64,000 nucleotides of DNA from positions 38,877 to 102,876 of the forward strand of contig CASZWJ010000004.1 in NCBI GenBank assembly GCA_949493535.1, read 5' to 3'. The translations under genes were made by a program, and so were the position numbers. Positions 3,001-42,849 of the stretch are shown here, piece after piece. The DNA comes from an uncultured Alphaproteobacteria bacterium (GTDB taxonomy: Bacteria > Pseudomonadota > Alphaproteobacteria > RF32 > CAG-239). Each line of letters starts with the position of its first letter. Positions within the stretch are counted from its first letter, which is position 1. The notes under the pieces are model-generated. The model did no database searches and was not told the origin of the DNA. It saw only the letters and a program-made list of their open reading frames with translations.

Positions 3001-6000
3001 TGAGTGTCAATATCCGTTCTGCTACCGATAATGCGGGCGGTATGTCCGCGGTTGCTTTCGTTTAACAGGTTTTGGGCTTTGAGCGTAATCTCGTTTTTGG
3101 CAAACATATCGCCGGAGTTGCTGATGTTTCCTGCTGCGATTGCGATATTTTGACCTGTCATTTTTGCGCCGTACCCACCGATTTTAATCTTATCAAGCGT
3201 TGCATCGCACAAATAAAGTTCCGGAACAAGCACTTTTTCGCCGTTAACCTCTTTCTCCACATACCATATTATGTCGCTGTTCAATTGTTTAATCTGTTCC
3301 GGGGTAAGGGCAATGCCGATTTTAAGGTCTAGCCGTTCATATTCGTTAGCGGCATTGCGATACAGGGCTTTCATCTGGTCGAGGTCGTTTGAAATCTCGC
3401 CGTTGCCGAGGTAATGCCCGTAAGTCGCCTTGCGGATAGCATCCATAATCAAGCGGGTTTCATAAGCCGGATCGCCCAACATCTTGCGGGTGTTGTACTC
3501 ATTTGAAAAAGGTGTAATCCGGTCAAAGAAATAATCAGAGCCGATAAAATTCTGCCCAAAATAATCCACCGTTGAGGTAACCATATATTTCGGGTTATTG
3601 CTGACGGCAAACATTCCGTTGTTGCCGCGAGGCAAGGTCAAATCTACAGGAACTTGCCCCAATTTGAGGTCAGGAGCTTCATCGCGACCAAAACGAAATG
3701 CTCCGACAGGTTCTTCGACTTGGTCATTAATGACATTGCCGTCCACCGCGTTGATAACAAGGTTGTTTCCGGCAGTAACCAATGATTTTTCTTTGGAATA
3801 AAAGCGCTCATAGTAATATTCTGTAGCGTTATAAGTCTTTTTGCGTGTGCGAAGACGTTTTTTCTTCTTTGTCCGCATTTGCTTCAAGATAGGAAGCTGT
3901 GCAATCTCGCTGTAGGTTTGATTCACAAGGTGGGACGTATTAATAACAGCATCGTTCTTAGCCGAAAACGTCGAACTCTGGTTCAGGATGTCACGGCTGT
4001 TAATCGTTAGGTCATTGCCGGCCAAAATCGATGCAGCTTCTGAATCCATATGTGTGGCGTTGATTTTGTAACGCCCAAGTTCCAACCAACCCCAGTTATA
4101 AAGTGCAGAATCTCTGATTTTGTCATAATAGGTACTATAGCCTGCCGTGCCTGTGTTGTGATGATACCCCATATTATAAAGCTTGTCGGACTTAATATCG
4201 ATATTGTTCAGGCTTTCGATACGGCCGCCGACATTCACAAGGGCATTAAATTGGTCTTCACTGGCTTCAAACGGCGTGCTTGAAATCTGGCTATCAATTT
4301 TATCCGATGTCTTAAAGTCAGTGCCACTTGTTTTGTCAATCGTTTCGCCCTCGGCTTCAGTGTCGTCCCACAGCGTAAACTTAACCTCGTTGCCGTTTGC
4401 ATCAAGAATTGTCATCTTGTCAAGGTCTTCAAAGCTGATTGTCGGCTCGTCATCCGGCGTTTCAGCAGGCGTGACCTTACGTTCGCCAACATAAATCGTG
4501 TAACCGTCTATGGTATAAGAGTCACCAAGTTTGGGTTCTTCCGCAAAGGCATCTGGTGGCAGAATAATCTTTTTGCCGCTGTCAACCAAGGTAATTTCAA
4601 GCTCATCATCGCCTTCGTCAATCTCGCCATCTTTAATGTCAAACTCATTATTGCCGCCGTTTTCTGCGGTATGGTTGTTGTCCACGTTCGGGTTGTCATA
4701 AACCTTGTTCGGGTCAACGTCGCCGATTTTGGCATCTTTGCCTTTGAGTTCAATATCTCCGCCCGCAAAAATCTCAGACAGGTAATTGATAATGTCCTTG
4801 CCGACTTCAATAACCATATCCGCTCCGGCAATCAAACCGGAATCCCTGTGGTTGATGTAGTCGTTCTCAGTAGAAATATTGATGTTTCCGGCGGCGGCAA
4901 TCTGTCCGAGGTTGTGAATATTGTCAGCGGCAAGAGTTGCATCTGTTCCCGCAGCAATTTTACTGTTGTTGGTTATGTCTCCGGTTGTCGCAATAGATAA
5001 GGTGTCATCAGTGGCAATTTGGGCATTGTTGGTCAAAGTGCCTGATTTAATATCCAAAGTCTTGGCTGAAACTGAAGTTCCGTTAAGTTCTGTAGTGTTG
5101 CCGACTGTCAGACTGCCATTGTTTTGGGCAAGGATAGTATCATTATTTGTCAGATTATTGCCGACCGTAACGGTCAAATCATTATCAGCAACCAGTTTTC
5201 CGGCGTTTGTCAGGTTGTTTTTGGCTTCAATCGCAATATCTGCGGCATTCAAAAACTGGCTGTTGAGGTTGATATCGTTATCCGCTTTGAGGTTGGCCGA
5301 GGTAAGGGCAGCCAGTTGTGTATTAGAGTGAATATCTTGTCCAACGGCAATTTCCAAAGTATCAGATAAAACAAAGTCGCCGTTTAAGGCGACATCATTT
5401 TTAGCAGACACAGAGGCATTGTTTTCGGCAACAACAATGCCGGAGTTTTGGTGTGTAACCGACCCGGCAGCGGATGCAACCCGCACATTATTTTTGGCCG
5501 CGGTGTTTTTGAACACAATATCGCCGTCAGCAGTAATCTCAACATTATCCATATCGGCAACCAAATTGCCATCCGTGCGAATACCCATACCGCTTTGCGT
5601 AGCTTCAATCTTAATCCGTCCTGCATACATTCCGCCCAAAGCCGAGCTGTCAATCGCAACGGTAACTTCCGGCGTAGTGGCTTCGCCAGTTTCGGACACC
5701 GAGGGTTTAGATGTGATTTTCTTGCTCTCATAGTCAAAGGTGTCGTTACCAGTCTTGACATTAAGCTCTTGATCGGCATCAACATAAATGTTTCCGGCAA
5801 TTTTAACCGCTTGAGAGACCAAATCTGCCCCACCGCCTTGAACATGAAGACCGAACGCTTCTTCGCCGACACCCTCAACCTTAATCGTACCAATGGTCGA
5901 AATCGCAAAATCCTGAACCTTGCCATCGACAACATTCGGTTTACCCGTAATCATTGTAAGACGACTGGTATTGATAAATCCGGCCCCTTCGGCGGTAATA

Positions 6001-6458
6001 CCGTTCGGGTTGGCAATAATCAAAGCGGCTTTCTTACCAAAAATCTCGGTGTAGCCTTTCAGAGCTGTTGTAGAGTTTGATGTAACTTCGTTCAAAATAA
6101 CCCGCGCGGCATCGCCAAGTCCAAAATTCGGGTTATAGGCTACTGTGCCGCCAAGGGTACTCTCAGCTTGTCCGATATTGGTGTTAAAAGAAAGGTTGTT
6201 TAAAATAAGGTTTTTATCTGAGACATTATATTCAATAAATTTGTTGTGAGAAACACCGCCCGCAGTAGGTTTGACAATGTTTAAGACATCCGTGCCGTTG
6301 GCTGATTGCACAAAATGCGGAGCTCCGGCACCTTGATGGGCATTTTGATCAATGACAATGTTATTATTTTGGGCAAACACTAAGGACGAAAACGAAACAG
6401 ACGAAAGAAGCAGGTAAGAGAATAACCTTGCTTGATGTTTTAAAGTAGTGTTTTCCAT
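1..6458 (-). CDS. Two-partner-secretion exoprotein (TpsA / filamentous haemagglutinin family), N-terminal ~2150 aa; gene continues beyond window start
   Basis: Reverse translation from ATG at 6456-6458 gives MENTTLKHQARLFSYLLLSSVSFSSLVFAQNNNIVIDQNAHQGAGAPHFVQSANGTDVLNIVKPTAGGVSHNKFIEYNVSDKNLILNN... followed by an NPNGI motif, the canonical TPS secretion domain. The rest is a long Gly/Asn/Thr/Val-rich beta-helical repeat region. All listed antisense and other-frame ORFs in 1-6458 are short and in a different frame, consistent with one uninterrupted minus-strand reading frame running off the window edge. Confidence 0.8.
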   Translation of the reverse strand, partial: MENTTLKHQARLFSYLLLSSVSFSSLVFAQNNNIVIDQNAHQGAGAPHFVQSANGTDVLNIVKPTAGGVSHNKFIEYNVSDKNLILNNLSFNTNIGQAESTLGGTVAYNPNFGLGDAARVILNEVTSNSTTALKGYTEIFGKKAALIIANPNGITAEGAGFINTSRLTMITGKPNVVDGKVQDFAISTIGTIKVEGVGEEAFGLHVQGGGADLVSQAVKIAGNIYVDADQELNVKTGNDTFDYESKKITSKPSVSETGEATTPEVTVAIDSSALGGMYAGRIKIEATQSGMGIRTDGNLVADMDNVEITADGDIVFKNTAAKNNVRVASAAGSVTHQNSGIVVAENNASVSAKNDVALNGDFVLSDTLEIAVGQDIHSNTQLAALTSANLKADNDINLNSQFLNAADIAIEAKNNLTNAGKLVADNDLTVTVGNNLTNNDTILAQNNGSLTVGNTTELNGTSVSAKTLDIKSGTLTNNAQIATDDTLSIATTGDITNNSKIAAGTDATLAADNIHNLGQIAAAGNINISTENDYINHRDSGLIAGADMVIEVGKDIINYLSEIFAGGDIELKGKDAKIGDVDPNKVYDNPNVDNNHTAENGGNNEFDIKDGEIDEGDDELEITLVDSGKKIILPPDAFAEEPKLGDSYTIDGYTIYVGERKVTPAETPDDEPTISFEDLDKMTILDANGNEVKFTLWDDTEAEGETIDKTSGTDFKTSDKIDSQISSTPFEASEDQFNALVNVGGRIESLNNIDIKSDKLYNMGYHHNTGTAGYSTYYDKIRDSALYNWGWLELGRYKINATHMDSEAASILAGNDLTINSRDILNQSSTFSAKNDAVINTSHLVNQTYSEIAQLPILKQMRTKKKKRLRTRKKTYNATEYYYERFYSKEKSLVTAGNNLVINAVDGNVINDQVEEPVGAFRFGRDEAPDLKLGQVPVDLTLPRGNNGMFAVSNNPKYMVTSTVDYFGQNFIGSDYFFDRITPFSNEYNTRKMLGDPAYETRLIMDAIRKATYGHYLGNGEISNDLDQMKALYRNAANEYERLDLKIGIALTPEQIKQLNSDIIWYVEKEVNGEKVLVPELYLCDATLDKIKIGGYGAKMTGQNIAIAAGNISNSGDMFAKNEITLKAQNLLNESNRGHTARIIGSRTDIDTQTLINRSGNIGGEVTTIKAGDILNETKKYTEEMRDGKNYTLTEKTGQEAVISGNKGLQIEASGTYASKGAKLESKEGDVALKAENIILDTVELHNREERTMKKSGFLSKKTTTSVKDSLQNVGSVIVAGGNALIESVKDLFSKGSKVEAGKDAQIIAGGDITAVAAEDSSYSYSKTKKSSLGGLKKSLDEVEHEEKRLRGSNIKTTEGLTVVSGKDTTLVASNVEAGKDVNILAGYKAGVDGKVEKSGKDGSVNILSGEETTKHREVHEKTNMMKSLTSAVDIGFENGKITVSKELGEETKDTWDNVQKNAVSSNIKAGGNVNISATEDVNLKGSNIISDNNVSISAENNINITSSQSTEDDKKTHSESKISATAGVGHVAVDAVYAVDANIEAAEAVKKAKDNLDKIKKLHSQGKASSDAVKDAEISLAAATANLAFVTQAASQSLETAQNTAPTLGFYADAGITTETTKTETTSGSVKNTASNIIAEKDISLSAGNDLNQVGSLVISNKGDIEYNVANNLNIQASKDTYHSSSQTTESNASAGISSKSGAYGSVGTGKSKSKEIVNQYNNSGSYAEEGKISYNVAGNMNAEGYNALAKNIDVNVGGDMNLASKQNESHANSSSNSYNVGFGGGAPTGGLSQSSGESDRQWVDNQTSIIGTESVDIDVDGKLKMDGSLIANIDKDGKDAGNLDIKAGSIEANDIYNYDRNSNSGISINTNLGGNPLGSNDGYDDGKTHLTITDNGYEKEGMTHATIGKGNIEVADGSDISGINRDINKTETITKDQVTGALDVDLTINHSVITDGPGKLIDDIANYHENMRDASGNLVQAGQQASDSLESGFFNDNVVKPLLGLYNAIVGTPGGIIGTFDESRSELYVNGEKVPAEAVEETLKKYQSYIVNGMLNSPNDVVELSLDDGTVIRYNPSYGLVGDTFEALMGKILSGNSTTADWLAMNRIVASDLETRKDMDNANNIFHSQGTIIGTGAANILDKKGTSINS

Positions 6459-13264: not shown

Positions 13265-13293
13265 AAAAAAGCCCCGGATAAAACCACCGGGGC
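13265..13293 (-). terminator. Rho-independent terminator downstream of the Cys-rich protein gene
   Basis: AAAAAAGCCCCGGATAAAACCACCGGGGCTTTTTTT: an 8-bp GC stem flanked by A-run and T-run. The U-run lies on the minus strand, 3' of the stop at 13315. Confidence 0.55.
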
Positions 13294-13314
13294 TTTTTTT
13301 ATGCTATGGCTTTA

Positions 13315-15639
13315 CTACTCAGCATACTTGTCATCAAATGTCGTCAAGCACATTAGAGTCGCAGTACTGTAGCCGGGGTCGCAAGGAGTTTTAGCTCCTG
13401 ACGAGCAACAATATTTTTTACCGTTACAAGTCTTTAAAGTACCGTTGCAGCCACCGATTCCCGGATTTACCGGATTAAGTGTCGCGTTCAGTTTCCATGT
13501 GCCTTTGACATAATTTGAGTCATATGGGCAAGTCGCCGTAACAGTAAATGTGTATTCCTTATACTGATACTGAGGATCATCTATTATGTCCACTCTATCG
13601 CCGACAATCGGCTTGCTAGGATCGATAACAGGTTGATCGGTGGCTAGAAGACCACAGCAATAGTAAGCCTGACAAGAGGATGTACAATTTTGTTTACATG
13701 AATTTATCATGTTTGCCGGACAACCCTGAGCTAACTCAGGAGTTGTGATAGCAGCCTGAGCAGACTTCAGTTCGATGATATTCTTCATGAAGTTAGCCAG
13801 CATTGAGCTCGGGATAACCGTTTCATTAGAAGCTGTCGGTTTCGGCCAGTCTTCTTTCAGACGATAACCTTCATCCAAGCATTTCTGAGCATTGCTCTTA
13901 GCTTCGCAAGCCGTATATTTTCCACCGCAAGACTCACCTTTCAGCGTTCCTGAACAGTTGGAAGAATTATAGATATACTTGCTCTGAGAACACGGGCAAC
14001 CAGGCTGTCCGGGTTGGATATCGGCAACTTTCTTACTGCTGTTGCCACCGGTTCCGGTCCAGCTTTCGCATCTGTAATCACCGTCAATACCACCCTGGAA
14101 GACACTGGTCGTTACACTCGGGTCTGTCTTGATGAGACCATTTACAGTTACTTTTCCTTTATACGTATAAGTACGTTTCTGAGAATAGTAACCGCCGTTG
14201 GAAACAACCAAACCTGATATCAATTCTTTCGTTTTGAAAGCATTGGTAACGGTTGAATCGCCCCACATACGCAACCATGCAACTTCATAAGTTCCGTTAT
14301 CTTTCGGAGTTCCGGTTGTTACATTTGCAGTATGACCATAGGCATCCCATCCGCATTTGCCATTCGGAATAGTAATGTTACCATCAGAATTGACGAAGTA
14401 ACGAGAGCATTTGTCTGTCGGACAGTTACTGTTCTTTTTCGGACAACCTTCAGAACCCTGCGGAATATTGTCTTTAATTACATGCCATTTATTTGCACCA
14501 CTATCGGCGGAAACTGTTTGGCAGGTAAAGTCGCCACAGACGCCTTTTTCAAATCTGACGGTTGTGACACCGGGTTCCAAACGTATTTTATCGGTTACGG
14601 TTACCAAACCTTTATAGGTAATGGTACGCTTCTGTTTATACGGTCCGCCGTTGGAGATAACCATACCCGGCGTTAAAATACCGGTTGTAAAGTCACCGAT
14701 AACGGTAGAGTTGCCCCACATACGAATCCATGCCGATGAATAGCTTTTACCGGACGGAACCGTAATGGTTGCCGTATGTCCGTAAGTATCCCAAGAACAT
14801 GCAGAATCCGGAATTGTGTGAGAACCGTCACCATTCCAGAAGTGTCCGCAGTTTGAAACAGACTCACATTTACCGCACTGTTTGCCGGCACTGTAGTATG
14901 AAGAACCTTTCCAAGACGTCATTCCCGAACAAGTGGTTTGGCTTGTCGAATACCCGCTCGGGCAAGGTGTAGGCGTGCATTTATAATGAGTGCCGCTGCT
15001 ATCCGAACATGATGAACAGGTATAACCTTGGTGAGAAATATCACTGCTGTAAGAATAATCAGCTTTACACTTACAAGCCTTATAACGCTGGGTTGAATTT
15101 ATTTTGCACCCGTTAGTGACATCGATAATCTTTTTGGAATCTCCGCAGCTGGCATCATTCGTATAAGGATATGCCGATGAAGTACAGCCACAGGCATCGC
15201 CAAACGTACCGCCGCCATCCTGCCGGCAAATTTTTCCAGAATAAAGCGCACTACCCTGAGTATTGCCTGCACCAGAGGTCGCATAGCAGTTATTTGCGCT
15301 GTACGGGAACTTTTTACCGTTACAAAAACAGGTTTTATATTTATTGCGATTAAACGGGCAAAAATCGGCAGCATCCTGATTGTTCGGGCATTTACCCGTT
15401 TTACCATAAGCTGCACAGTTGTTTGTCGGCTTTCTTCCGGGGATATTATCTCCGGCCCAGCCGGTTTCGCTGTCTTTTAAATCAGGCAGGAATTGTAAGC
15501 CTGCATATTTTTGAACATTTACCGAGTCGGCCATTGAATCCAATGTAAGACTCATTTCTCCTGCTGCAAGCGAATTGCCGGCAAAACACCAAAGGCCTGC
15601 CGCCAGCGCCCACAACAGGTAATTACATTTCTTAAACAT
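13315..15639 (-). CDS. Large secreted cysteine-rich protein of unknown function (about 775 aa, about 85 Cys), with internal tandem about 100-aa domain duplication
   Basis: A GAGGTG RBS precedes ATG 15639. The N-terminus MFKKCNYLLWALAAGLWCFAGNSLAA is a signal peptide. The composition is dominated by C, G, S, T, Y, K and N. Two paralogous modules share the motifs C(S/G)WD(T/A)YGHTA and AW(I/L)RMWG(N/D)STV and SNGG(P/Y)Y(K/S)QKRT(I/Y)TYKG. One is at about residues 290-390 (DSACSWDTYGHTATITV...) and one at about 430-530 (NGKCGWDAYGHTANVTT...). Many N-x-S/T sequons. No homolog recognised. Confidence 0.6.
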   Translation of the reverse strand: MFKKCNYLLWALAAGLWCFAGNSLAAGEMSLTLDSMADSVNVQKYAGLQFLPDLKDSETGWAGDNIPGRKPTNNCAAYGKTGKCPNNQDAADFCPFNRNKYKTCFCNGKKFPYSANNCYATSGAGNTQGSALYSGKICRQDGGGTFGDACGCTSSAYPYTNDASCGDSKKIIDVTNGCKINSTQRYKACKCKADYSYSSDISHQGYTCSSCSDSSGTHYKCTPTPCPSGYSTSQTTCSGMTSWKGSSYYSAGKQCGKCESVSNCGHFWNGDGSHTIPDSACSWDTYGHTATITVPSGKSYSSAWIRMWGNSTVIGDFTTGILTPGMVISNGGPYKQKRTITYKGLVTVTDKIRLEPGVTTVRFEKGVCGDFTCQTVSADSGANKWHVIKDNIPQGSEGCPKKNSNCPTDKCSRYFVNSDGNITIPNGKCGWDAYGHTANVTTGTPKDNGTYEVAWLRMWGDSTVTNAFKTKELISGLVVSNGGYYSQKRTYTYKGKVTVNGLIKTDPSVTTSVFQGGIDGDYRCESWTGTGGNSSKKVADIQPGQPGCPCSQSKYIYNSSNCSGTLKGESCGGKYTACEAKSNAQKCLDEGYRLKEDWPKPTASNETVIPSSMLANFMKNIIELKSAQAAITTPELAQGCPANMINSCKQNCTSSCQAYYCCGLLATDQPVIDPSKPIVGDRVDIIDDPQYQYKEYTFTVTATCPYDSNYVKGTWKLNATLNPVNPGIGGCNGTLKTCNGKKYCCSSGAKTPCDPGYSTATLMCLTTFDDKYAE

Positions 15640-16078
15640 AATACACCTCACACACTTAACACTATACACAGCATTATTGTATAACAAAATTGAAATGATT
15701 TAAAGTCAATGAAACAAGTTATACGTGTTTTTTCGTTAATTGTAACATTTTTGTAACAATTAAAATAAGCGGGCGGAAATTTTGAAAGATGACGAAGACA
15801 TTGTCCGGAGTCCGAAACTGCTGTTTTTACAAAAGCCAATCCATTTCTTAACAAAAATGTCACATTTTTTGTCTAGGCGGGGCTATGAAAATATGATATG
15901 TTGAATTTGTTATCTTAAGTATATTGCTATTAAAATGGTTTATTATTGGAAATGTTGTCAGAAAATTAAAATTTTAGAATTCTCTAGAGTTTTTAATATC
16001 TGTTCAGTCTGATGATTTACCTTTTATAAGTGCTTCCGATGACAAAACAATATTAACAACTCTAAAATTTTTACAACT

Positions 16079-16711
16079 ATGGCAACAAACATGGTAAGCA
16101 ACAACGAAGTTCTCAACCTGCTCAACAACTCCAAAATGACCGCTATCCCCACCGGCGCCGAGCGACTCATCATCCCGGCTTTCGGCTTCATCGGAGGTAT
16201 CGCTACTCAACGTGAAGAATGGGGTGCAAACGGCGCTTTCATGGAAGATGTTATCGGACTCGAGTTTTATAACGACAAAGACCGGAAGACTCAGGTACTC
16301 AAGGCTGCTGACGGATGTCTCATCTGCTATGCCGCTCCCGGCCGTCTGGAAGCTGTCAAAGAATATCTCGAAGAGAACTCCGACACGTTTGCTACCGCCG
16401 ATGGTGTGACCGCCCTGATTAACTTCATAAAAGAAGATATGGAACTCGACGGCCTCACTCCCGACCTCTACGACACGGATGTCAACTTTGCTCAGGGTCT
16501 GCTCGGCGCTCCCGCTGAAATCACTGTCGGCGTTCCTTTCACCGGCGTGAAGAAAAAGGAAGTGCTTACGGTCATCGAAGTTGCTCCCGGAACAGAGTTC
16601 GGCGGCGCGACGGCAGGCGAAGACGGCGCTTACATCAGAAGAGATTCCAAGGGTGACATCAAGATGGTTCAGCGTGCTGAATTTCTCGCCGCTTACCAGC
16701 TCTCTGAGTAA
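16079..16711 (+). CDS. Hypothetical acidic protein (210 aa) with atypical C-ending codon preference
   Basis: ORF with a clean start and a hairpin terminator. Codons are overwhelmingly C-ending (ctc, atc, ggc, gcc, acc, gac, ttc), unlike neighbouring genes, and local GC is about 52% against about 44%. The sequence MATNMVSNNEVLNLLNNSKMTAIPTGAERLIIPAFGFIGGIATQREEWGANGAF... matches no recognised domain. Confidence 0.5.
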   Translation: MATNMVSNNEVLNLLNNSKMTAIPTGAERLIIPAFGFIGGIATQREEWGANGAFMEDVIGLEFYNDKDRKTQVLKAADGCLICYAAPGRLEAVKEYLEENSDTFATADGVTALINFIKEDMELDGLTPDLYDTDVNFAQGLLGAPAEITVGVPFTGVKKKEVLTVIEVAPGTEFGGATAGEDGAYIRRDSKGDIKMVQRAEFLAAYQLSE

Positions 16712-16827: not shown

Positions 16828-17343
16828 CTATTCTACCTGCCAACTTTTAGAAAACTCTTCATCTTTGAACAATGAGGCCAATCCTGTTATTTGCTTTAAC
16901 CTTAAAACCTCATCCGCCGACATGCCGATATTGCGGCAAATCCACGCATCAGACTTGCCCATTTCCAAAAGTTCTTTAACAATATTGCTCATCAGATCGA
17001 TATTATGGCTGCCGCGGGCACGGTTATGGCGTATGGTTGATGCCATGCGTTCTCCCAGCTCTTTATCAATCACGACAACCGGTGCCATGCCCTGCTCCCG
17101 ATCACGAATGCGGTCGTTGGTCATTAAAATCGTGTAGCGGTGAAAGCCGTCAACCACAATATATTCATCCCGCCTCTTATCATAATAGCAGACAATCGGC
17201 TGGGTGAAACCGTCTTCCCATATTGAAAGCTCCAGCAGTTTCATTTCCGGCGGCGCAACTTTATTCGGATTATAATCATTCGCGCGGATTTTTTTGAGCG
17301 GAATTGCTTTAACATTATAAACGGGACTGATAAACTGGCTCAT
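16828..17343 (-). CDS. ParB/sulfiredoxin-fold (ParB N-terminal nuclease-like) domain protein, IbrB-like
   Basis: 171 aa. IPLKKIRANDYNPNKV...LLELSIWEDGFTQPIVC...YIVVDGFHRYT carries the DGxHR motif of the ParB/Srx superfamily. It is the last gene of a three-gene minus-strand operon. Confidence 0.7.
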   Translation of the reverse strand: MSQFISPVYNVKAIPLKKIRANDYNPNKVAPPEMKLLELSIWEDGFTQPIVCYYDKRRDEYIVVDGFHRYTILMTNDRIRDREQGMAPVVVIDKELGERMASTIRHNRARGSHNIDLMSNIVKELLEMGKSDAWICRNIGMSADEVLRLKQITGLASLFKDEEFSKSWQVE

Positions 17344-17353
17344 CGTTTTATCC

Positions 17354-18655
17354 TTATAGTTTTCTGTATTTATCCATTAATTCGGCTTGGCGGGATTTCT
17401 GCTTTTTTGATTCCGAAAAGCCCATATGTTTACACAAATGGTCATTTTTCAAAATGCAGACAGCCATGCGTTTCCAAGACGGAATGTCTATAGACGATTT
17501 TATATCATCTGTATTATCCGGCGTTCCTAAAAAGCGGACGCGTTCTTTGCTTGATTTATAATTGCTCTGTCCGTTTATTGAAACGGGATAATTGCAAGCC
17601 TCCAGCTCTTTGATTGTTTCTTCACAAACCACACCGCCGGTTTTCCACCAAAAGCGGATAGACGTTGAGAATTTTTTGATATAATTACGGCGGATTTCTC
17701 CCGGCAGGGTTGCCAGCAAAAATTTTACGTAAGACCGCCATGTATGCCCTTCCGGCAACGTGATTTTACCGCAGCCCAAGGCTCTGGTATTGCCGTAAAT
17801 GGCGCCAAAATTTGCCCCGTGTACACGCCCGACGACTTTTGCCCAAGTTACGGGTTCCAACACCCTATATAAATTCAGACTGTCCTTCGCGCTTTCGTGA
17901 TAGGGGCTGGCTACGCGCATTTGCGCTATTGACAGCCCCGCTTTCCAATATAAATCATAAATTTCATTATAATCAAAATCAAATTTGGAATTGGCCGTCC
18001 AGACGTCTTTTACCGTCCAATCATACAACGGATAAGCATTATACAAATTATCAGCCAGTTTTGTCGTCCATTGCCGGTTTTTAAGAATATCTTTATGAAC
18101 ATTGGCATAAGCACGATAACGATTTAAAGATTCATCCGCGCGAATGCCCAGCAGGCAAATGCTTTTTCCCTTATGGCTATTGGCATACCAATGCCCGAAA
18201 CCGGCATATAAATCTTCTTGCAGCATTTTATCTTTATAAAAATCAAACGGATTATTTTCTTCATTAATGACATAAGGAAAAGCCGGCATCGGACGAACCC
18301 AGGCCTCTTTCTGGGATTTCTCCCACGGATACCAATAGATTTGAAAATTGCTGACGGCACAGCGCGATGCCATCGGCAAACATACCCAATAAGGCTCTAT
18401 TTGCCCGAGGTTGTTTTGAAACATGCGGGTCACATATTGCGTCGTCAAATCATATTGAGCCTCAAAATCCTGATGAAATACGCCTATTTTGCGGTTAATT
18501 TGGTGTTTTTTGACATAGTCAAGCACCAAATTCAGCAAAAGCCCGCTGTCTTTGCCGCCGGAGAATGACACATAAATATTTTCAAAATTTTCGAAAATAA
18601 ATTTCAGCCTATCCTGCAGGGCATCATAAACATTTATATCCAAATATTTTTTCAT
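17354..18655 (-). CDS. PAPS-reductase-like / PP-loop ATP pyrophosphatase family protein (IbrA/DndC-like), 433 aa
   Basis: N-terminal YVSFSGGKDSGLLL is the SGGxDS PP-loop of the PAPS reductase / DndC / IbrA family. A long C-terminal extension is present. It lies 10 nt upstream of the ParB-like gene and overlaps the SNF2-like gene by 4 nt. Confidence 0.7.
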   Translation of the reverse strand: MKKYLDINVYDALQDRLKFIFENFENIYVSFSGGKDSGLLLNLVLDYVKKHQINRKIGVFHQDFEAQYDLTTQYVTRMFQNNLGQIEPYWVCLPMASRCAVSNFQIYWYPWEKSQKEAWVRPMPAFPYVINEENNPFDFYKDKMLQEDLYAGFGHWYANSHKGKSICLLGIRADESLNRYRAYANVHKDILKNRQWTTKLADNLYNAYPLYDWTVKDVWTANSKFDFDYNEIYDLYWKAGLSIAQMRVASPYHESAKDSLNLYRVLEPVTWAKVVGRVHGANFGAIYGNTRALGCGKITLPEGHTWRSYVKFLLATLPGEIRRNYIKKFSTSIRFWWKTGGVVCEETIKELEACNYPVSINGQSNYKSSKERVRFLGTPDNTDDIKSSIDIPSWKRMAVCILKNDHLCKHMGFSESKKQKSRQAELMDKYRKL

Positions 18656-19911
18656 AAGCTTAAAACGGCCTCCCTAGACATCTGACGGCATACATTATTG
18701 AGCACGATTTTCTTGCGGTTGAGATTATCGCGGATTAATTCTTCCAGACCGGTCTTAACCCAAAAATTATAAATATTCACCGTCCTTGCACGCAGCTTTT
18801 GATTCAGATTATACAGGCTCTGCACTTTATCTTTATAATCAAAGGTCTGAGAAAAATAGATAATGTTGTCGCAAGCATGCAGACTCAAATGCAAACGGTC
18901 AACCCGATAAGTGCAGAACATAATATTAATATCTCTCTCAAAACAGCGGATTGCCCGCAACTTGTTTGAACGCCCCGTCAGTTCGACAAAAGCGCCTTTG
19001 ACAAAGCCGCCGCTTTCGCGCAGAAAAACCACCTCATCCAAATACTTGGTATAAATGATAACTTTTTCGTTGCGTTTTTCAATCTGACGCACCAGTTTGA
19101 ACAAAGCTTCCACCTTGTTTTTGGCAATTGTGTAGATATGTTGGAACTTCTGAGCGACTTCCATAAAAGCCACGTGATATTTGCCTTTCAAAAAATCTTC
19201 TTTTTCCTGACGGTAGTTTTTGGCTTCTGCCGGCGTCAATTCAAAATCCTGATTGTAATGGCGCAAATTACTATTCCAATCCTTTAAATCAAACTTAAAA
19301 ATATAAGGGCGTATCATTTGTATCAATTTTTTTTCGTTTTCGGGCGTTGACCAGCGTCTACAGGTTTTAAAATCATCAAAATAAAACGGAAGGAAATAAT
19401 TGGCAAACTGAGTTTCCGTCATTCGCAAAATATTTGAATCAATAAATGTCAGCTGGGCATATAAATCTATCAGCCCCTGCGTCAACGGCACTGCGCTCAA
19501 AATCAGCCTGTATTTGAATTTTTTATGTATCGACAAAAGCCGCCGCGTTCTTCCGGCTTCAGAATTTTTGATTGTCAAACTGTCGTCAACCACGCAAAAT
19601 GTTCGATATTTATCGCAGATATTATACAATCGCAAATACTTTTCATCAGACAAAGAAACAGATTCAATCGAAAAAAAACAAATTTTTTTGGCAGTCTCTC
19701 CGGCATAAAACCTTATCAAGGATTTGTATTCCGGCGTGCCGAAAAAAGCTGACGGCGCTATCCAAATAACAAAATCTATCTCTGAGAGCTTTGAGCGGAT
19801 TAAATCAACAGCGAACTTTATTTTTTCATCGCTCGCATTTATAAAAACAGCTCCCGCTTTAAGACAGGAGAGTTTTTTACTTGCTTCCTTAAACTGCCGG
19901 CTGAAATTCAT
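18652..19911 (-). CDS. SNF2-family helicase-like protein with degenerate ATPase motifs (probable pseudo-ATPase), 419 aa
   Basis: It aligns by motif spacing to the SNF2 N-domain. VIWIAPSAFFGTPEY matches motif Ia (LIVxPxSxxxNW). FCVVDDSLTIKN matches motif II, with DDSL in place of DEAH. RLILSAVPLTQGLIDLYAQLTFID matches motif III (LLLTGTPLQNxLxELWSLLNFL), with SAVP in place of TGTP. The motif I position reads GAVFINASDEKIK, with no GxGKT P-loop. The C-terminal half has helicase-C-like VIIYTKYLDEVVFLRE...FVELTGRSN...IMFCTYRVDRLHLSLHACDNIIYFSQTFD but lacks the QxxDRxHRIGQ arginine-finger motif. Confidence 0.6.
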   Translation of the reverse strand: MNFSRQFKEASKKLSCLKAGAVFINASDEKIKFAVDLIRSKLSEIDFVIWIAPSAFFGTPEYKSLIRFYAGETAKKICFFSIESVSLSDEKYLRLYNICDKYRTFCVVDDSLTIKNSEAGRTRRLLSIHKKFKYRLILSAVPLTQGLIDLYAQLTFIDSNILRMTETQFANYFLPFYFDDFKTCRRWSTPENEKKLIQMIRPYIFKFDLKDWNSNLRHYNQDFELTPAEAKNYRQEKEDFLKGKYHVAFMEVAQKFQHIYTIAKNKVEALFKLVRQIEKRNEKVIIYTKYLDEVVFLRESGGFVKGAFVELTGRSNKLRAIRCFERDINIMFCTYRVDRLHLSLHACDNIIYFSQTFDYKDKVQSLYNLNQKLRARTVNIYNFWVKTGLEELIRDNLNRKKIVLNNVCRQMSREAVLSL

Positions 19912-23095: not shown

Positions 23096-23395
23096 GGCGC
23101 TAACACTGCTTAGTTACAAATCATCTTAAATTTTATATTACTGATTTTAACTATACATGTACGGCACAAAAATACAATTAAAAAAAGAAAATTTACATAA
23201 AAAAGTGTATAGTTTTATAAAAAGACTACTTTTACTTACTATATTATGTATTTTATCCAATCTATTAAAATTGCTAAACATATTATTTTATGTACAGGAT
23301 TAATATCCTATATGATTTTGCAATCACCCGCCCGATTATTTTGGCACGAATTTTGCATTATTAAGGTAAAGTTTAATTACAATTTTGAGGCCATA

Positions 23396-24526
23396 ATGAA
23401 GATGATTGCTTTCAAACCTATTAAAACCGCGCTTTTTGCCGTATTCAGCCTGGGAATATTTTTTCAGGCACAGGCAGTTTATGCCTCTTCGCGCATAAAA
23501 GATATTGCCGATTTTGAAGGCATAAGGGACAACCAGCTTGCCGGATATGGTTTGGTTGTCGGTTTGAACGGCACCGGAGACAATATCAAGTCCATAGATT
23601 TTACCAAAGAAAGCATTTTATCAATGCTTGACCGTATCGGTATTAATGCGCGCGACGGACAGTTGAAGTCTAAAAACGTTGCGGCGGTTATGGTCACGGC
23701 CAATCTGCCGGCATTCGGGCGTCAGGGAAGCCGCATTGACGTTATGGTCAGCGCTTTGGGCGATGCCAAAAGCCTGCAGGGCGGCACTTTGCTCGCAACA
23801 GCACTCACCGGCGCCGACGGCGAGGTTTATGCTGTTGCCCAAGGACAGATTGCAGTCGGTGCAGTCAGTGCCAAAGGCGCAACCCAGTCTGTTGTCAAAG
23901 GCGTGCCAACCTCAGGAAGAATTGCCAACGGGGCTATTATCGAAAATGAGATTCCTTTTGAGCTGGATAACATGAAAAAAATCAGAATTGCCCTACGCAA
24001 TCCTGACTTTACGACGGCTCGCCGCGTGACAGACGCAATCAATGCCTATATGAGCACGAATGCGGCAAAAGCCCTTGATCCGGGAACGATTGCCATTGAC
24101 ATTCCCGAAAATTATGACGGCAAGATTGTCGATTTTATGACCAAAATCGAACAACTCCAAGTCCAGCCGGACCAATTGGCTAAAGTGGTTATTGACGAAG
24201 CCTCCGGCATTGTCGTTATCGGCAAAGACGTTAAGATTAACCGTTTGGCCATCGCCCAAGGCAACCTGACGATTAAAATTACGGAAATGCCTTTTGTTTC
24301 GCAGCCGCTGCCTTTTTCTGACGGGCAAACCGTTGTCGGCACCAATACGGCTATTGATATTAATGAAGGCATTGAAACCAAACTCAGCGTTTTGGACACC
24401 GGCGTTAATTTACAGGAACTGGTTGACGGCTTGAACGCTTTGGGCGTAACGCCGCGCGACCTTATCAGCATCTTGCAGGCTATTAAAGCCAGCGGCGCAT
24501 TACAAGCAGATATAGAGGTAATTTAA
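23396..24526 (+). CDS. flgI: Flagellar P-ring protein FlgI
   Basis: Signal peptide MKMIAFKPIKTALFAVFSLGIFFQAQA, then SSRIKDIADFEGIRDNQLAGYGLVVGLNGTGD and the conserved FlgI core through to C-terminal LQADIEVI. The ORF-track start at 23246 is an upstream extension. ATG 23396 precedes the signal peptide. Confidence 0.9.
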   Translation: MKMIAFKPIKTALFAVFSLGIFFQAQAVYASSRIKDIADFEGIRDNQLAGYGLVVGLNGTGDNIKSIDFTKESILSMLDRIGINARDGQLKSKNVAAVMVTANLPAFGRQGSRIDVMVSALGDAKSLQGGTLLATALTGADGEVYAVAQGQIAVGAVSAKGATQSVVKGVPTSGRIANGAIIENEIPFELDNMKKIRIALRNPDFTTARRVTDAINAYMSTNAAKALDPGTIAIDIPENYDGKIVDFMTKIEQLQVQPDQLAKVVIDEASGIVVIGKDVKINRLAIAQGNLTIKITEMPFVSQPLPFSDGQTVVGTNTAIDINEGIETKLSVLDTGVNLQELVDGLNALGVTPRDLISILQAIKASGALQADIEVI

Positions 24527-24527
24527 G

Positions 24528-24869
24528 ATGACTGAAGCCGTTTCGACATATCAGGCCAATCAAGTTTTTTCCGGCAAAACGGGAAAAGCTCTATCGTCTC
24601 AGGATAAAGGCGCCAAAAATTTAGCCAAGGCTAAAGAAGCGGCCGAAGATTTTGAAGCCTTTTTCATGACAAAAATGATGGAAAGCATGTATGAAGGCGT
24701 TTCAACTGACGGAATGTTTGGCGGCGGCCATGCCGAAAAAATCTACCGTTCCATGCTGTTAACGGAATATGGCAAGATTATGGCAAAAACCGGCACCATT
24801 GGCATTTCAGACAGCATTATGGATTCAATTATTCAGATGCAGGAGGCTCAGAGTGCCGCGGCACATTGA
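24528..24869 (+). CDS. flgJ: Flagellar rod-binding protein FlgJ, short form (no muramidase domain)
   Basis: AAEDFEAFFMTKMMESMYEG...GGGHAEKIYRSMLLTEYGKIMAKTGTIGISDSIM matches the FlgJ N-terminal rod-binding domain. The 113-aa length means no glucosaminidase domain. Start is 1 nt after the flgI stop. Confidence 0.65.
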   Translation: MTEAVSTYQANQVFSGKTGKALSSQDKGAKNLAKAKEAAEDFEAFFMTKMMESMYEGVSTDGMFGGGHAEKIYRSMLLTEYGKIMAKTGTIGISDSIMDSIIQMQEAQSAAAH

Positions 24870-24883
24870 GAAAAGGTGATAAG

Positions 24884-25336
24884 ATGGAAAATATTACGCA
24901 AGAAGAATTAAATAAAAGGATTGCCGATTATCATGAAATTATTTCCGGCTTTACCGCTCTTCTCAAGGAAGAAAATAAAGCTTTGGCCGAGTTGGATATG
25001 GACACGGTCGGAAAACTGTTTGAAAAAAAAGCGCAAACCGTCGGCGTTTATCGCGGTTTAGTCGCATTTTTCATTAAACATCAAGATGCCTTAAACAGCC
25101 TCAGCGACGAAGAAAAAAACAGCCTCAAAGAAGAATCCAAGACATTGGATGAGCTGCTGCTTGAAAATGACAAATTATTAAAAACCAGAATGGAAACCAG
25201 CCAGACGGTAATGGATTCAATTATCAACATTGCCAAAGTGGCTAACAACGCCAATGCGACATCTTACGGCTGTCAGGGGCGCTATACCCCTCTGGACAAC
25301 AGTAAGAATGCCCTTGCCGTTAACAGGACTTTGTAG
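24884..25336 (+). CDS. Putative flagellar export chaperone, FlgN-like (helical 150-aa protein preceding flgK)
   Basis: AAGGTG RBS 5 nt before ATG 24884. The protein is all-helical and E/K/L-rich, with a C-terminal YGCQGRYTPLDNSKNA tail resembling FlgN termini. The call rests mainly on position and composition. Confidence 0.35.
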   Translation: MENITQEELNKRIADYHEIISGFTALLKEENKALAELDMDTVGKLFEKKAQTVGVYRGLVAFFIKHQDALNSLSDEEKNSLKEESKTLDELLLENDKLLKTRMETSQTVMDSIINIAKVANNANATSYGCQGRYTPLDNSKNALAVNRTL

Positions 25337-25347
25337 GAGACACGACC

Positions 25348-27531
25348 ATGGCATTAATTCCCAGTTTAAATACTTCTCTTTCCGGAATGAAAACGGCTCA
25401 AGGGCAGTTGGACATTGTCAGCCGCAATATTGCCAATACCGATACTGTCGGCTATTCCCGCAAATCAGCCCAGCAGAACGCCGTGGTTTTGTCAGGAACC
25501 CCCAACGGCGTGGCTCTCGGCGAAGTCAGACGCAATGTTAACGAAGGATTGTTACGCAGCTTTCTGGCATCTAATTCGACAACCGGAAATCTTAGTTCTA
25601 AAAATGAATATCTGAGCAAAACCCAGCTTCTTTTGGGAACACCGCAAAGCGACAACTCCATTGCTGCTAACGTCGGCGCGCTCCAAGCCGCTTTTGAAAC
25701 TTTTGCCAGCGACGTCACTTCTGCTTCCAGCCGCTATAATCTTTTAAATAATGCGCAAACAATCGCCCAGCGCCTCAGCTCTATTTCTACCGAAATCCAA
25801 AAACTGCGCGGTGATGCAGATTTGGGAATCAGCGGCGCGGTTAACGAAGTCAATGCCTTATTAACCAGTCTGGACGATTTGAATGACAGCATTGTCAAAT
25901 ACAAAGTTCTGGGCTATGAGGGCGTTCCCGATTTGGAAGACAAGAGAGACCAAGCCTTGCGCGAGCTGAGCGAAAAAATTGATATCACTTATTTCAAACG
26001 CGACAACGGCGCTATCGTCATTCAGACACAAAACGGCATTACCCTGTTGGACAACGATCCTTATTACCTTTCGCATTCTGCCGTTGCCCAGACCAGCCCC
26101 ACTTCAACTTATGCCGGAGGCGAAATCGGCGGCATCTTTGTTGACGGCACCGATATAACAAACCTGTTAAAAGACGGCGAAATTAAAGGATTGGTCGAAG
26201 TACGAGATGTCATCCTTCCGTCTTTGCAGTCTCAGTTAGACGAGCTTGCCGGCAGCTTGAAAAACGAAATCAATGCCGTTCATAACCAAGGAACAGCATT
26301 TCCGGCAACGCCGTCAAGCCTGACCGGCACCCGCACGATTATTGATGCGGCCAAACAGCGTATCAAGATTGAAGGCGGCGATGTCCGTTTTACGATTTTT
26401 GATAAATCAGGCAACCAAGTGTCAACAGCTTCGCTCATCGGCGACATCGGTTTTAGCGAAGGCACAATTGAAGAAATGACGACAGCCATTCAAAACTGGC
26501 TGACATCCCCGACCGGCGGCAATATGCCCGAAGCGGTTGCCCAAATTGACAAGAACGGACATTTGACCATTCAGACCGGTGACAGCGAGTATTCTATCTC
26601 AATTATGGATCAGGTTTCTTCGACGCCGGGAAGCGATCAGGGCAGCGTAACCATTAAATTTGCCGGAAACAATACCCTCAATTATGACCGCTCGTTTGAA
26701 GGCTTTTCCAATTTCTTCGGGCTTAATGACTTTTTCGTTACTCAAAATACGGAATCTATTTATGACTCGAAAGTTGTCTCTCGCAATCTGAACCTCGGAT
26801 TGAAAGAACAGGTGGTTCTCGGCTTTTCCACCCCAGGCAACGGTGTCAATTTCGGTTCTATTACCGTTAATCCGTTTGACAGCCTGACGGACATTGTCAA
26901 TAAAATTAACGATGACCCGACTCTTAACTCGACAATTCGCGCTTCCCTTGTTCCAAACGGTGACGGCTATATGCTCCGTATTGTTAATACGACCGGCGAA
27001 CAATTGGAAATTTCGGAAAACCGCATGAACGGCGACCCGGCTCCCGGCCTGATTGAGAAACTCGGTTTGCGCCCGTCCAACGCCACGGCAGCCACTTCGT
27101 TGCAGGTACGCGATAATTTGGCAAATCAGCCGGATTTGATTGTTTCCGGCACTCCGGAATTTAACAAAAATTCAGGAAAATACCAGCTCAATCCGGCGCA
27201 AAACGATATTGCCAATAAATTAGCCGAAGTTTTTTCAACAACGCATGATTTTGCACAATCAGGAACGATTGCAAAAACGACAACCACACTCGGAAACTAT
27301 GCCGCAACTTTTGTCGGAAGCATTGCCACCCAGACCAGCAATGCGGAAAGCAACCTGAAATATCAACAGGAATTAACAAACTCCATTTCGACCAAAGAAG
27401 CGCAAATCAGCGGCGTAGACATCGACGAAGAACTTGGACAAATGATTATTTTTCAGCAGTCTTACGCGGCAAGCGCCAAAGCTTTTACCGCAGCAAAAGA
27501 AATTTTAGACATGCTGCTTAATATTGTATAG
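25348..27531 (+). CDS. flgK: Flagellar hook-associated protein 1, FlgK
   Basis: AGGAGA RBS. The N-terminus MALIPSLNTSLSGMKTAQGQLDIVSRNIANTDTVGYSRK is the rod/hook N-terminal signature. The C-terminus GQMIIFQQSYAASAKAFTAAKEILDMLLNIV is the FlgK C-terminal helix. 727 aa. Confidence 0.85.
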   Translation: MALIPSLNTSLSGMKTAQGQLDIVSRNIANTDTVGYSRKSAQQNAVVLSGTPNGVALGEVRRNVNEGLLRSFLASNSTTGNLSSKNEYLSKTQLLLGTPQSDNSIAANVGALQAAFETFASDVTSASSRYNLLNNAQTIAQRLSSISTEIQKLRGDADLGISGAVNEVNALLTSLDDLNDSIVKYKVLGYEGVPDLEDKRDQALRELSEKIDITYFKRDNGAIVIQTQNGITLLDNDPYYLSHSAVAQTSPTSTYAGGEIGGIFVDGTDITNLLKDGEIKGLVEVRDVILPSLQSQLDELAGSLKNEINAVHNQGTAFPATPSSLTGTRTIIDAAKQRIKIEGGDVRFTIFDKSGNQVSTASLIGDIGFSEGTIEEMTTAIQNWLTSPTGGNMPEAVAQIDKNGHLTIQTGDSEYSISIMDQVSSTPGSDQGSVTIKFAGNNTLNYDRSFEGFSNFFGLNDFFVTQNTESIYDSKVVSRNLNLGLKEQVVLGFSTPGNGVNFGSITVNPFDSLTDIVNKINDDPTLNSTIRASLVPNGDGYMLRIVNTTGEQLEISENRMNGDPAPGLIEKLGLRPSNATAATSLQVRDNLANQPDLIVSGTPEFNKNSGKYQLNPAQNDIANKLAEVFSTTHDFAQSGTIAKTTTTLGNYAATFVGSIATQTSNAESNLKYQQELTNSISTKEAQISGVDIDEELGQMIIFQQSYAASAKAFTAAKEILDMLLNIV

Positions 27532-27542
27532 GAGATTTTATT

Positions 27543-31674: not shown

Positions 31675-31695
31675 TAAAAGAACTCCTAATCAGTA

Positions 31696-33774: not shown

Positions 33775-33806
33775 GTTTTTCTCCCGAATTAATTTTCAGC
33801 CAATGC

Positions 33807-41480: not shown

Positions 41481-41566
41481 GGGGGTATGGCGGAACTGGT
41501 AGACGCGCTAGACTCAAAATCTTGTTCCCACAAGGAGTGTCAGTTCGAGTCTGACTACCCCTACCA
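41481..41566 (+). tRNA. tRNA-Leu (anticodon CAA), class II with long variable arm
   Basis: The sequence GGGGGTATGGCGGAACTGGTAGACGCGCTAGACTCAAAATCTTGTTCCCACAAGGAGTGTCAGTTCGAGTCTGACTACCCCTACCA folds as a cloverleaf. It has a 7-bp acceptor stem with one G-U pair, D-arm GCG/CGC, anticodon loop CTCAAAA, a long extra arm, T-arm GTCAG-TTCGAGT-CTGAC, discriminator A and CCA. It has the same architecture as E. coli tRNA-Leu. One U-U mismatch lies in the anticodon stem. ORF 41487-41720 overlapping it is spurious. Confidence 0.8.
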
Positions 41567-41612: not shown

Positions 41613-42221
41613 TTATCCAACTATTTCTCTTCTAATATATTTTATCTTATCTGCTTTTATGTTTGTATAAAAAGCCTGTTTTTTGCAATAATGAAGACGT
41701 CCATAAAAATCGCATTCTGATTTATACATTTCTAATGGATTTTCGTTATAATTTTCAAAATTACATAAATAATTCACATATAATACATTTATAAAACATC
41801 CCGTATTTAAATTTTCCGATGATGTTAAAATTTGATTTAACTGTTTTACAGACCCAAAAATCTCTGTATCAAATTTCTGAGAAAAATCTATAAAAATAAA
41901 ATCCTCCTTTGTGGTCTCTATTTGCAAACCGACAACTTCTGCTATCTTAAAAGAACGTCCTCGTTCACGTTTATTTTCTATTAATAACTTTGCTTCATGA
42001 AAAGATGCTGCAAACCATCCCATATGGTATGAAGTGTATCCTCTACCAGTCAATACTTCATATAATTTTATAAATCTTATATTTGTTATTTCTTTTTTTA
42101 TAATTTCTTTATTCCCTGAAAATAAAGGAATACTATAGGATAAAGATGTTTTCTTTCTCTTTGTATCAGCAATAATCAATCTACGTTTTTCATCTTCGAA
42201 ATTATAGATAATAGCGTTCAT
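41613..42221 (-). CDS. Hypothetical protein encoded by a markedly AT-rich (about 27-30% GC) orphan gene next to tRNA-Leu
   Basis: Strong AAGGAG RBS 7 nt before ATG 42221 (MNAIIYNFEDEK...). The codon usage is AT-extreme compared with flanking genes. The sequence ...GYTSYHMGWFAASFHEAKLLIENKRERGRSFKIAEVVGLQIE... matches no family I recognise. Confidence 0.45.
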   Translation of the reverse strand: MNAIIYNFEDEKRRLIIADTKRKKTSLSYSIPLFSGNKEIIKKEITNIRFIKLYEVLTGRGYTSYHMGWFAASFHEAKLLIENKRERGRSFKIAEVVGLQIETTKEDFIFIDFSQKFDTEIFGSVKQLNQILTSSENLNTGCFINVLYVNYLCNFENYNENPLEMYKSECDFYGRLHYCKKQAFYTNIKADKIKYIRREIVG

Positions 42222-42531
42222 TATTTTCTCCTTTAAAATAAAAAAGCTCAATTAAAAATATTTTTAACTGAGCAAATACAAAAAAAACAGCTATTTGCAT
42301 AGCTGTCCAATATTCTGCCTATATGGCTTTTATAGAGTTATTTTAGCTAAAATTTAAATCTGTGTCAATTATTTTTTGCATCAATAAAAAATGAATCGAT
42401 TCACTTTTTAAGATGTCGGTGTGCAAAATTTTCGTTAGCTGACTCCGAAATTTAGGCATATGGCAAAATCTTGTTTTCTTCCGAAAAATTAACATTTTAT
42501 TAATATACAGTTTTTTTAGGAGGATAAAAAA

Positions 42532-42747
42532 ATGTTAAAGGTAAATGTTGCAGGCTATCTTATTCATAATCTGGCCGGAATGAACTACGACAACAACGAA
42601 GCTGCTGTCGCTCAGACCATTGATATGCTTGTAGATTCATGGTCTGATAACAGATACCTTTCCGTCCAGCCTAATCTTGAATATCACATCAAGCCGGATC
42701 AGGTTAACTTTGGAAAAACACCGTTACGCGCGGTCACCAATTGTTGA
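42532..42747 (+). CDS. Hypothetical small protein (71 aa) with strong RBS
   Basis: TAGGAGGAT RBS 8 nt upstream of ATG 42532. MLKVNVAGYLIHNLAGMNYDNNEAAVAQTIDMLVDSWSDNRYLSVQPNLEYHIKPDQVNFGKTPLRAVTNC. A hairpin terminator lies downstream. Confidence 0.4.
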   Translation: MLKVNVAGYLIHNLAGMNYDNNEAAVAQTIDMLVDSWSDNRYLSVQPNLEYHIKPDQVNFGKTPLRAVTNC

Positions 42748-42803
42748 TGAGTTTTTTTATTATTATGCCGACATGATTACATCTCTCAAACACACACAAC
42801 AAA

Positions 42804-42830
42804 AAGGCTGTTCAGAATGAACAGCCTTTT
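42804..42830. terminator. Bidirectional hairpin terminator (AAGGCTGTTC-AGAA-TGAACAGCCTT)
   Basis: Perfect 10-bp stem with T-run downstream on + and A-run upstream, between 42532-42747 (+) and the cysS stop at 42850 (-). Confidence 0.5.
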
Positions 42831-42849
42831 ATCTTTATCAGAACATCAA

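Follow-up and report, generated by a model that had tools for sequence, protein, structure and literature searches.

The 64,000-nt window analysed here, from contig CASZWJ010000004.1 of an uncultured alphaproteobacterium, carries on its minus strand, at positions 13315–15639, an open reading frame (ORF) for a cysteine-rich protein with a signal peptide. This gene is the target of the present analysis, and all coordinates are those of the window. A first-pass annotation, made from the sequence, had described an ORF of 775 aa. The ORF stands, but its product is 774 aa long from the ATG at 15639, with the stop codon at 13315–13317. The first in-frame start is a TTG at 15687; the ATG at 15639 is the one with GAGG upstream. 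With a GC content of 0.452 and a GC content at third codon positions (GC3) of 0.422, the gene is typical of the window, in which it is single-copy and monocistronic. As the first-pass annotation had stated, it has its own terminator, a stem followed by a T-run 3' of the stop codon, which a consensus scanner missed because the loop is 9 nt long. The annotation was equally correct that the gene is arranged divergently to a neighbour of atypical composition across a 439-bp AT-rich region: the gap to the gene starting at 16079 is exactly 439 bp, with a GC content of 0.285 versus 0.429 for the window, and the GC3 of the neighbour is 0.59, compared to 0.37–0.53 in 17 other genes of the window.

The N terminus of the protein reads MFKK-CNYLLWALAAGLWCFAG-NSLAAG, in agreement with the signal peptide proposed earlier. 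Judged from these residues, it has the make-up of a Sec/signal peptidase I (Sec/SPI) signal, with MFKK, a 17-residue hydrophobic core and NSLAAG, and cleavage after G27 would place alanine at –3 and glycine at –1. An equivalent hydrophobic N terminus is present in most aligned full-length relatives whose N terminus is intact. A bacterial lipoprotein was considered and rejected, since the residues before C18 are G-L-W and do not form the lipobox [LVI][ASTVI][GAS]C. G, S, T, K, C, N and Y are abundant, in line with the earlier description; three other points were not confirmed. The protein contains 50 cysteines (6.5%) and not about 85; two of them lie in the signal peptide, and the 48 left to the mature chain make an even number. 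CxxC motifs of the CGKC type occur just twice. The supposedly numerous N-x-S/T sequons number 12, where shuffles that preserve the composition give 9.0 ± 2.6 (P = 0.16), and are not enriched.

The layout of the protein is given in Table 1. By motif scan, the cysteine knot at residues 548–578 reuses the module type of the stalk, C-x-C-Y-x-Y-C. Eighteen cysteine columns of the N-terminal region are invariant across 18 sequences down to 27% identity, a pattern that fits a fixed disulfide framework.

Table 1. Control elements of the target gene and segments of its product.
Feature	Residues	Window positions	Strand	Basis and remarks
Ribosome-binding site GAGG		15646–15649	-	6-nt spacer to the ATG at 15639; read directly in the sequence
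Candidate sigma-70-like promoter, TTTAAA-17-TACAAT		15676–15704	-	Consensus scan, 9/12 matches, pattern match only; inside the 439-bp intergenic region
Rho-independent terminator: A-run, stem GCCCCGG/CCGGGGC (13293–13271), 9-nt loop, T-run (13270–13265)		13265–13300	-	Read directly
Signal peptide, 2 of the 50 Cys	1–27	15559–15639	-	Read from sequence; putative cleavage site at about residues 25–27
N-proximal linker, predicted disordered, with family-wide motif YAGLQFLPDLKDSETGW (aa 45–61, nt 15457–15507)	28–74	15418–15558	-	pLDDT <50
Cysteine-rich stalk, 22 Cys	75–258	14866–15417	-	Motif scan; repeated small modules C-x-C-x3-5-[YF]-x-[YF]-x-C ... C ... [YF]-x-C
Repeat unit 1: predicted beta-helix domain (aa 262–376) and trailing hairpin ending GCP	259–400	14440–14865	-	
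Repeat unit 2: predicted beta-helix domain (aa 409–527) and trailing hairpin ending GCP	401–549	13993–14439	-	Hidden Markov model (HMM) domain match 409–527; pLDDT about 76–90 in the full-length model
Conserved Cys-knot after repeat 2, CSQSKYIYNSSNC...C...C...C	550–592	13864–13992	-	C548, C550, C562, C571 and C578 invariant in alignment A1
Hypervariable cassette	593–731	13447–13863	-	Divergence versus L011; pLDDT <50
Conserved C-terminal Cys-rich knob, motif CNGKKYCC...C...C, and stop codon	732–774	13315–13446	-	Motif C.G..[YC]CC in relatives

An internal duplication of a domain of about 100 aa had been reported from the translation. The duplication is clear, residues ~260–400 aligning with ~407–549 at 48% identity (E = 8e-41), while the domain proved larger than stated: each unit spans about 140 aa and consists of a core of 115–120 aa followed by a hairpin that ends in G-C-P. 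The repeat motifs quoted at the time, CSWDTYGHTA/CGWDAYGHTA, AWIRMWGNSTV/AWLRMWGDSTV and SNGG.Y.QKRT.TYKG.VTV, are all present. The duplication is also visible in the DNA as blocks D1 and D2, which are 73–76% identical and lie 453 nt apart.

We used AlphaFold2 (AF2) to model the full-length protein from an 18-sequence alignment, which gave a mean predicted local distance difference test score (pLDDT) of 64. Residues ~110–555 are all beta in this model, scoring 64–90 per ten-residue block and mostly 73–90. The stalk is predicted as beta-hairpins, at pLDDT 68–90 from residue ~110, and the C-terminal ~75 residues as a Cys-rich knob with four short strands, while residues 557–696 and the N-terminal ~110 residues score below 50. 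When the full-length model was compared to the Protein Data Bank (PDB) with Foldseek, no match reached E < 0.1, and every weak match was a beta-solenoid. The lack of a full-length match is probably due to about one-third of the model being of low confidence. The first repeat domain was then re-modelled as residues 260–379 from alignment A3, which holds 59 sequences including distant members. The resulting model has a pLDDT of 95.9, a predicted template modelling score (pTM) of 0.89 and 11 short strands. Its structural matches, which indicate a class of fold, include ChiW, TBCC/RP2, alginate epimerases, bactofilin, the secretion domain of filamentous haemagglutinin (FHA) and a subunit of the Legionella Dot type IV secretion system (T4SS). 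As modelled, the domain has the characteristics of a right-handed parallel beta-helix, being all-beta with stacked short-strand rungs that superpose on solved beta-helices. The prediction for each repeat is a short right-handed beta-helix with about 5–6 rungs. Such mini beta-helices together with a dense framework of invariant cysteines are unusual for Gram-negative bacteria.

The first-pass annotation could assign the protein to no recognisable family, and our searches agree: there was no match in Pfam at E ≤ 10, in NCBIfam, among PDB sequences or in PADLOC. Neither the single sequence nor profiles A1 and A3 matched any PDB sequence significantly; the strongest profile match was to phage spike tips, at E = 0.012. 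We searched a profile of the repeat domain (A2) against 1.84 billion representative proteins and obtained 39 proteins at E ≤ 0.001. Domain-level re-scoring showed three of these to be spurious partial matches to unrelated repetitive proteins, leaving about 36 true relatives of the domain and bearing out the rarity that had been suggested. None of the ~36 has a name and almost all are rich in cysteine; where the sequence is complete, it mostly opens with a signal-peptide-like segment. The proteins carry one to four domain copies, as a rule preceded by other Cys-rich modules. In a set of 5.8 billion proteins, the broader profile A3 added no more than two further unnamed proteins. The family was found in none of the viral contigs scanned, and a metagenome scan matched one contig. 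In a genome-collection scan the single protein matched nothing and the alignment matched one contig of a metagenome-assembled genome (MAG) of a Pseudomonadota bacterium. The identical protein is present on 17 contigs from several metagenomes.

Among the relatives, the distant member P0028 scored above the cut-off for the autochaperone family AC_1 (27.7 versus 27.1 bits) and below it for DUF2807 (22.1 versus 24.2 bits). Pfam signals in the family were otherwise sub-threshold or borderline; single relatives gave Furin-like_2 (E = 0.0021) and TNFR_ELAPOR1 (E = 0.0049), both below threshold. We conclude that the repeat domain represents a sequence family that is new and very rare but whose predicted fold is a known one, and that the protein, in its overall architecture, is an unusual version of the beta-helical surface proteins. 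The domain family lacks a Pfam or NCBIfam model, but a confident structure prediction assigns it to the adhesin-type beta-helix class and so makes interpretable a block of 'hypothetical proteins' of an uncultured proteobacterial lineage. The target bears on no long-standing open question. Three distant members (P0036, P0041 and P0055) also contain, upstream or downstream of the beta-helix domain, a repeated unannotated Cys module, of approximate consensus C..(I/L)CG..F.YDRPG...GGQE.VCTRYP.SCGYGCTTGWDF.Y...YTCQ.A, perhaps a further domain family of this lineage that has yet to be characterised.

The full-length relatives number 17, are 42–97% identical to the target over the alignment, and are all unnamed and devoid of Pfam domains. 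The frame is intact in every one of them. The first-pass annotation had named pseudogene status in relatives as grounds for doubting the gene; instead, besides the intact frames and the GAGG site, we obtained dN/dS ratios (Nei–Gojobori) of 0.15–0.25 against three relatives. The gene is real and under purifying selection. In the stalk, dN/dS is 0.07 versus L001. Compared to contigs L001 and L010, which represent other species, the target shows a dN of 0.10–0.19 and an omega of 0.15–0.20, whereas the flanking genes show 0.03–0.05 and 0.02–0.06, respectively. The target gene is therefore constrained yet evolving 2–4 times faster than its neighbours.

Close relatives retain the neighbouring genes, in the order SNF2 – DUF3440/PAPS-reductase – ParB_N ... 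gene – ABC-F – cytidylyltransferase – QueH. In relatives of 47–49% identity the gene instead follows hda, fliQ/fliR/flhB and a gene for a CckA-like hybrid kinase, and in L013 a gene for a 568-aa FtsZ lies ~0.8 kb downstream of the orthologue. Such surroundings suggest an alphaproteobacterium. Chromosomal contexts were conserved in all six of the relatives whose contigs were examined. Since these positions are kept, the gene is a native chromosomal gene and not an island gene.

Variation between near-identical strains is sharply localised. In comparison with the conspecific contig L011, the upstream flank is 98–100% identical and the downstream flank mostly 94–100%, with one 100-nt window at 90%. 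Within the gene, the first ~1,200 nt are 98–100% identical and identity begins to drop at ~14450. Between 13850 and 13445 (aa ~597–731) it falls to 48–79%, with indels exceeding 150 bp, and it returns to 100% about 55 nt ahead of the stop codon. The cassette has a dS of 1.45 and a dN of 0.30 against L011, compared to a dS of ~0.01 in the 5' half of the gene. Alignment A1 contains at least two cassette types at the same place, a CC-rich one, as in the window, and one with furin-like C..C..GY.L repeats. Divergence localised in this way bears the mark of recombination that replaces alleles within a defined C-terminal segment. A cassette so sharply bounded is probably subject to frequency-dependent selection from phage, predator or host.

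The segments at the two ends of the protein recur across the family. The L-P of the N-proximal 'FLP' motif is invariant in alignment A5, and 40 of the 72 family sequences match the strict FLP pattern within their first 110 residues. The motif type of the target itself escapes the strict pattern, but the alignment shows that it is homologous. A profile of the N-terminal region matched 16 proteins, 14 of them new, unnamed and 280–435 aa long. The 16 share S[FY][QK][IVL]AKA.FLP[DE]..D[DS].G and the Cys framework, and at least some differ in the C-terminal part. At the other end, C.G..[YC]CC is found near the C terminus of 20/72 family sequences, including the distant members P0027, P0059 and P0068. 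As a tentative extension, to which we attach low probability, the target may belong to a lineage-restricted superfamily of at least 50 representative Cys-rich proteins, the complete ones mostly with a signal-peptide-like start. This superfamily would be defined by a post-signal motif, S-[FY]-[QK]-[IVL]-A-K-A-x-F-L-P-[DE] ... D-[DS]-[EL]-G, located 20–30 residues after the signal peptide, and by the invariant-Cys stalk, rather than by its payload. Interchangeable payloads could then include one to four beta-helix domains, furin-like repeats and others, and the motif could be a sorting or anchoring signal of an undescribed export or surface-attachment pathway. The shared N-proximal motif offers a concrete handle for seeking a dedicated sorting or anchoring mechanism.

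Altogether, we propose, as a reading that has an even chance of being correct, that the target is a Sec-exported, disulfide-stabilised modular protein of the envelope or surface, adhesin-like and with a recombining exposed tip. Following removal of the signal peptide, the 48 remaining cysteines could form up to 24 disulfides in the periplasm. The flexible N-proximal segment, with its x-[FY]-x-[IVL]-A-x-x-x-[FW]-L-P-[DE] motif, may tether or sort the protein. It would be followed by a rigid stalk of small invariant-Cys modules and then by two tandem short right-handed beta-helices, stalk and helices together serving as a scaffold. The C-terminal part, with the cassette swapped by recombination between strains and the conserved CC-containing knob, would be the exposed tip driven by selection. 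The faster evolution of the gene relative to its flanks and the sharply bounded cassette speak for exposure, and the AC_1 and DUF2807 scores of P0028 also favour this reading. Surface localisation with actual passage through the outer membrane, a function for the FLP motif, the pairing of the disulfides and any ligand are inferences. The most likely job of such a protein would be adhesion or another form of surface contact, in the manner of the beta-helical adhesins of Gram-negative bacteria.

Four kinds of known protein come closest to the target. One comprises the DUF2807/GIN-domain putative adhesins of Bacteroidales (PDB 3lyc, 3pet, 3jx8 and 3ljy; PF10988; Porphyromonas gingivalis PGN_1547), at 6–16% identity. 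For one DUF2807 protein, from P. gingivalis, experiments support a role as an adhesin (PMC10949514). The target itself has no PF10988 match at E ≤ 10, P0028 being the only member of the family that scores. Type V passengers, namely autotransporters (UpaB, 6bea; Pet, IcsA, Hap and pertactin) and TpsA exoproteins (FHA, 1rwr; HMW1 and HxuA), differ from the target in that its helices are two separate domains of ~115 aa and not one long solenoid. Unlike autotransporters (type Va), the target has no C-terminal beta-barrel and no Pfam or NCBIfam match, and AC_1 was detected only in P0028. Unlike TpsA proteins, it has no two-partner secretion (TPS) domain and no NPNL or NPNGI motif, nor is a tpsB gene adjacent, the neighbours being ABC-F, a 210-aa ORF and ParB_N. 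Beta-helix domains of the CARP/TBCC/RP2 type and bactofilins are 5–11% identical to the target, a resemblance of fold class only. Cyclase-associated protein, tubulin cofactor C and RP2, like bactofilin, are known to be intracellular.

A giant minus-strand ORF at 3–6458, of more than 2,150 aa and running off the start of the window, is rich in N, G, A, S and T and carries the TPS-like motifs AYNPNFGLG and IIANPNGIT at its N terminus; it is therefore an FhaB/TpsA-like two-partner-secretion exoprotein. Its cysteine content is 0.1%, compared to 6.5% in the target, and no TpsB-sized gene is visible beside it in the window.

Several results weigh against a surface adhesin. Of an outer-membrane anchor, an autotransporter barrel, a TPS domain, a lipobox and a known C-terminal sorting domain, none was detected, which leaves surface display putative. 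The N-terminal 110 and the C-terminal ~220 residues are modelled with low confidence. Sequence identity to all of the structural matches is just 5–16%, so that the beta-helix is an assignment of fold class and not of homology.

The main rival is that the target is a structural part of the periplasm or associated with the outer membrane, such as an ancillary component of the flagellum, of a secretion machine or of the division apparatus, in which the disulfides merely stabilise the fold. We regard this as unlikely. It would account for the lack of a surface-display module, and the same fold decorates the Dot/Icm core. It also agrees with a gene that is single-copy in the window, that sits in conserved chromosomal contexts in the six relatives examined, and that lies near flagellar or cell-cycle genes: flgI and flgK in the window, fliQ/fliR/flhB, the CckA-like kinase gene and hda in distant relatives, and ftsZ in L013. 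However, a strain-specific cassette and evolution at 2–4 times the rate of the neighbours would be unusual for an internal machine part. In addition, the neighbours differ between the two synteny classes, leaving no conserved operon partner, and the gene, which is monocistronic, ends in a terminator of its own.

A released effector or toxin for eukaryotic cells, with Cys-rich repeats that bind receptors, appears improbable. An effector-, lectin- or toxin-like protein interacting with eukaryotes had been suggested by the first-pass annotation, but we found no direct support for it: the composition is native, the gene is single-copy in conserved contexts, and no toxin or enzyme domain is present. 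Such a role would be in keeping with the high cysteine density, with the Furin-like_2 and TNFR_ELAPOR1 signals and with the putative superfamily of small Cys-rich proteins whose signal-peptide-like N termini share a motif. Cysteine-rich surface proteins made up of furin-like or VSP-like repeats, as in Giardia variant-specific surface proteins (VSPs) and Pfam Furin-like_2, resemble this family in their high cysteine density, in extracellular C..C..GY.L repeats, which occur in the cassettes of P0002, P0005–P0007, P0010 and P0015, and in variation confined to one part of the molecule. The target itself has only its two CxxC motifs and no Pfam match, and its stalk modules follow a different pattern, C-x-C ... 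Y-x-Y ... C. The matches to eukaryotic-repeat families are below threshold and limited to single members. Moreover, searches of Pfam, NCBIfam and PDB sequences revealed neither a catalytic nor a pore-forming domain, genes for a secretion system do not adjoin the target, and the native composition and conserved position do not suggest an island.

That the repeats form a pectate-lyase-like beta-helix enzyme acting on polysaccharides, or a carbohydrate binder, is very improbable. Enzymes of that class are built of 10 or more rungs and carry catalytic loops; here about 11 short strands are packed into 115 aa. The target does not combine a lyase or GH28 match with catalytic residues, no lyase or hydrolase family in Pfam matched even at E ≤ 10, identities are 5–12%, and non-enzymatic mini-helices match better. 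The idea of a chance ORF or pseudogene, favoured only by the lack of annotation in a family whose members are all unnamed, is effectively refuted by the frame kept intact in 17/17 relatives, the low dN/dS, the invariant cysteines, the ribosome-binding site and terminator, and the high-confidence structure prediction of the repeat domain.

The divergent ORF at 16079–16711 (plus strand) encodes 210 aa at a GC content of 0.53 and matches nothing in Pfam, NCBIfam or PADLOC. It is found in the conspecific contigs L003–L005, L007, L011 and L012. In L001 and L010 its slot holds a gene for a CsoR-like metal-sensing repressor (PF02583) directly upstream of the target, and L001 has a 233-aa ORF as well. 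The slot beside the target gene is thus variable.

At 16828–19911 (minus strand) lies a block for an SNF2-family helicase, a PAPS-reductase/DUF3440 protein (IbrA-like) and a ParB_N protein (IbrB-like), which adjoins the target in close relatives. Its only matches to defence models are weak ones, to DndC, ZorD and DrmD, and it may be a DNA-modification or defence module or an IbrAB-type regulatory module. A functional link between the target and this trio was rejected because distant orthologues lack the neighbourhood.

Further along the window, at 23246–29471 and 29527–36005, a flagellar cluster (FlgI, FlgK and a 642-aa flagellin/FlgL-like protein without a Pfam match) lies beside genes of glycogen metabolism (4-alpha-glucanotransferase, an isoamylase-like protein and GlgB). 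These flagellar and glycogen genes are part of the evidence that the window belongs to the ordinary chromosome of a Gram-negative bacterium that is motile. A tRNA-Leu(CAA) gene at 41481–41566 is followed by mostly minus-strand ORFs (~42000–60000), including one for a Phage_nozzle-domain protein at 50430–52328, and this run is likely an integrated prophage.

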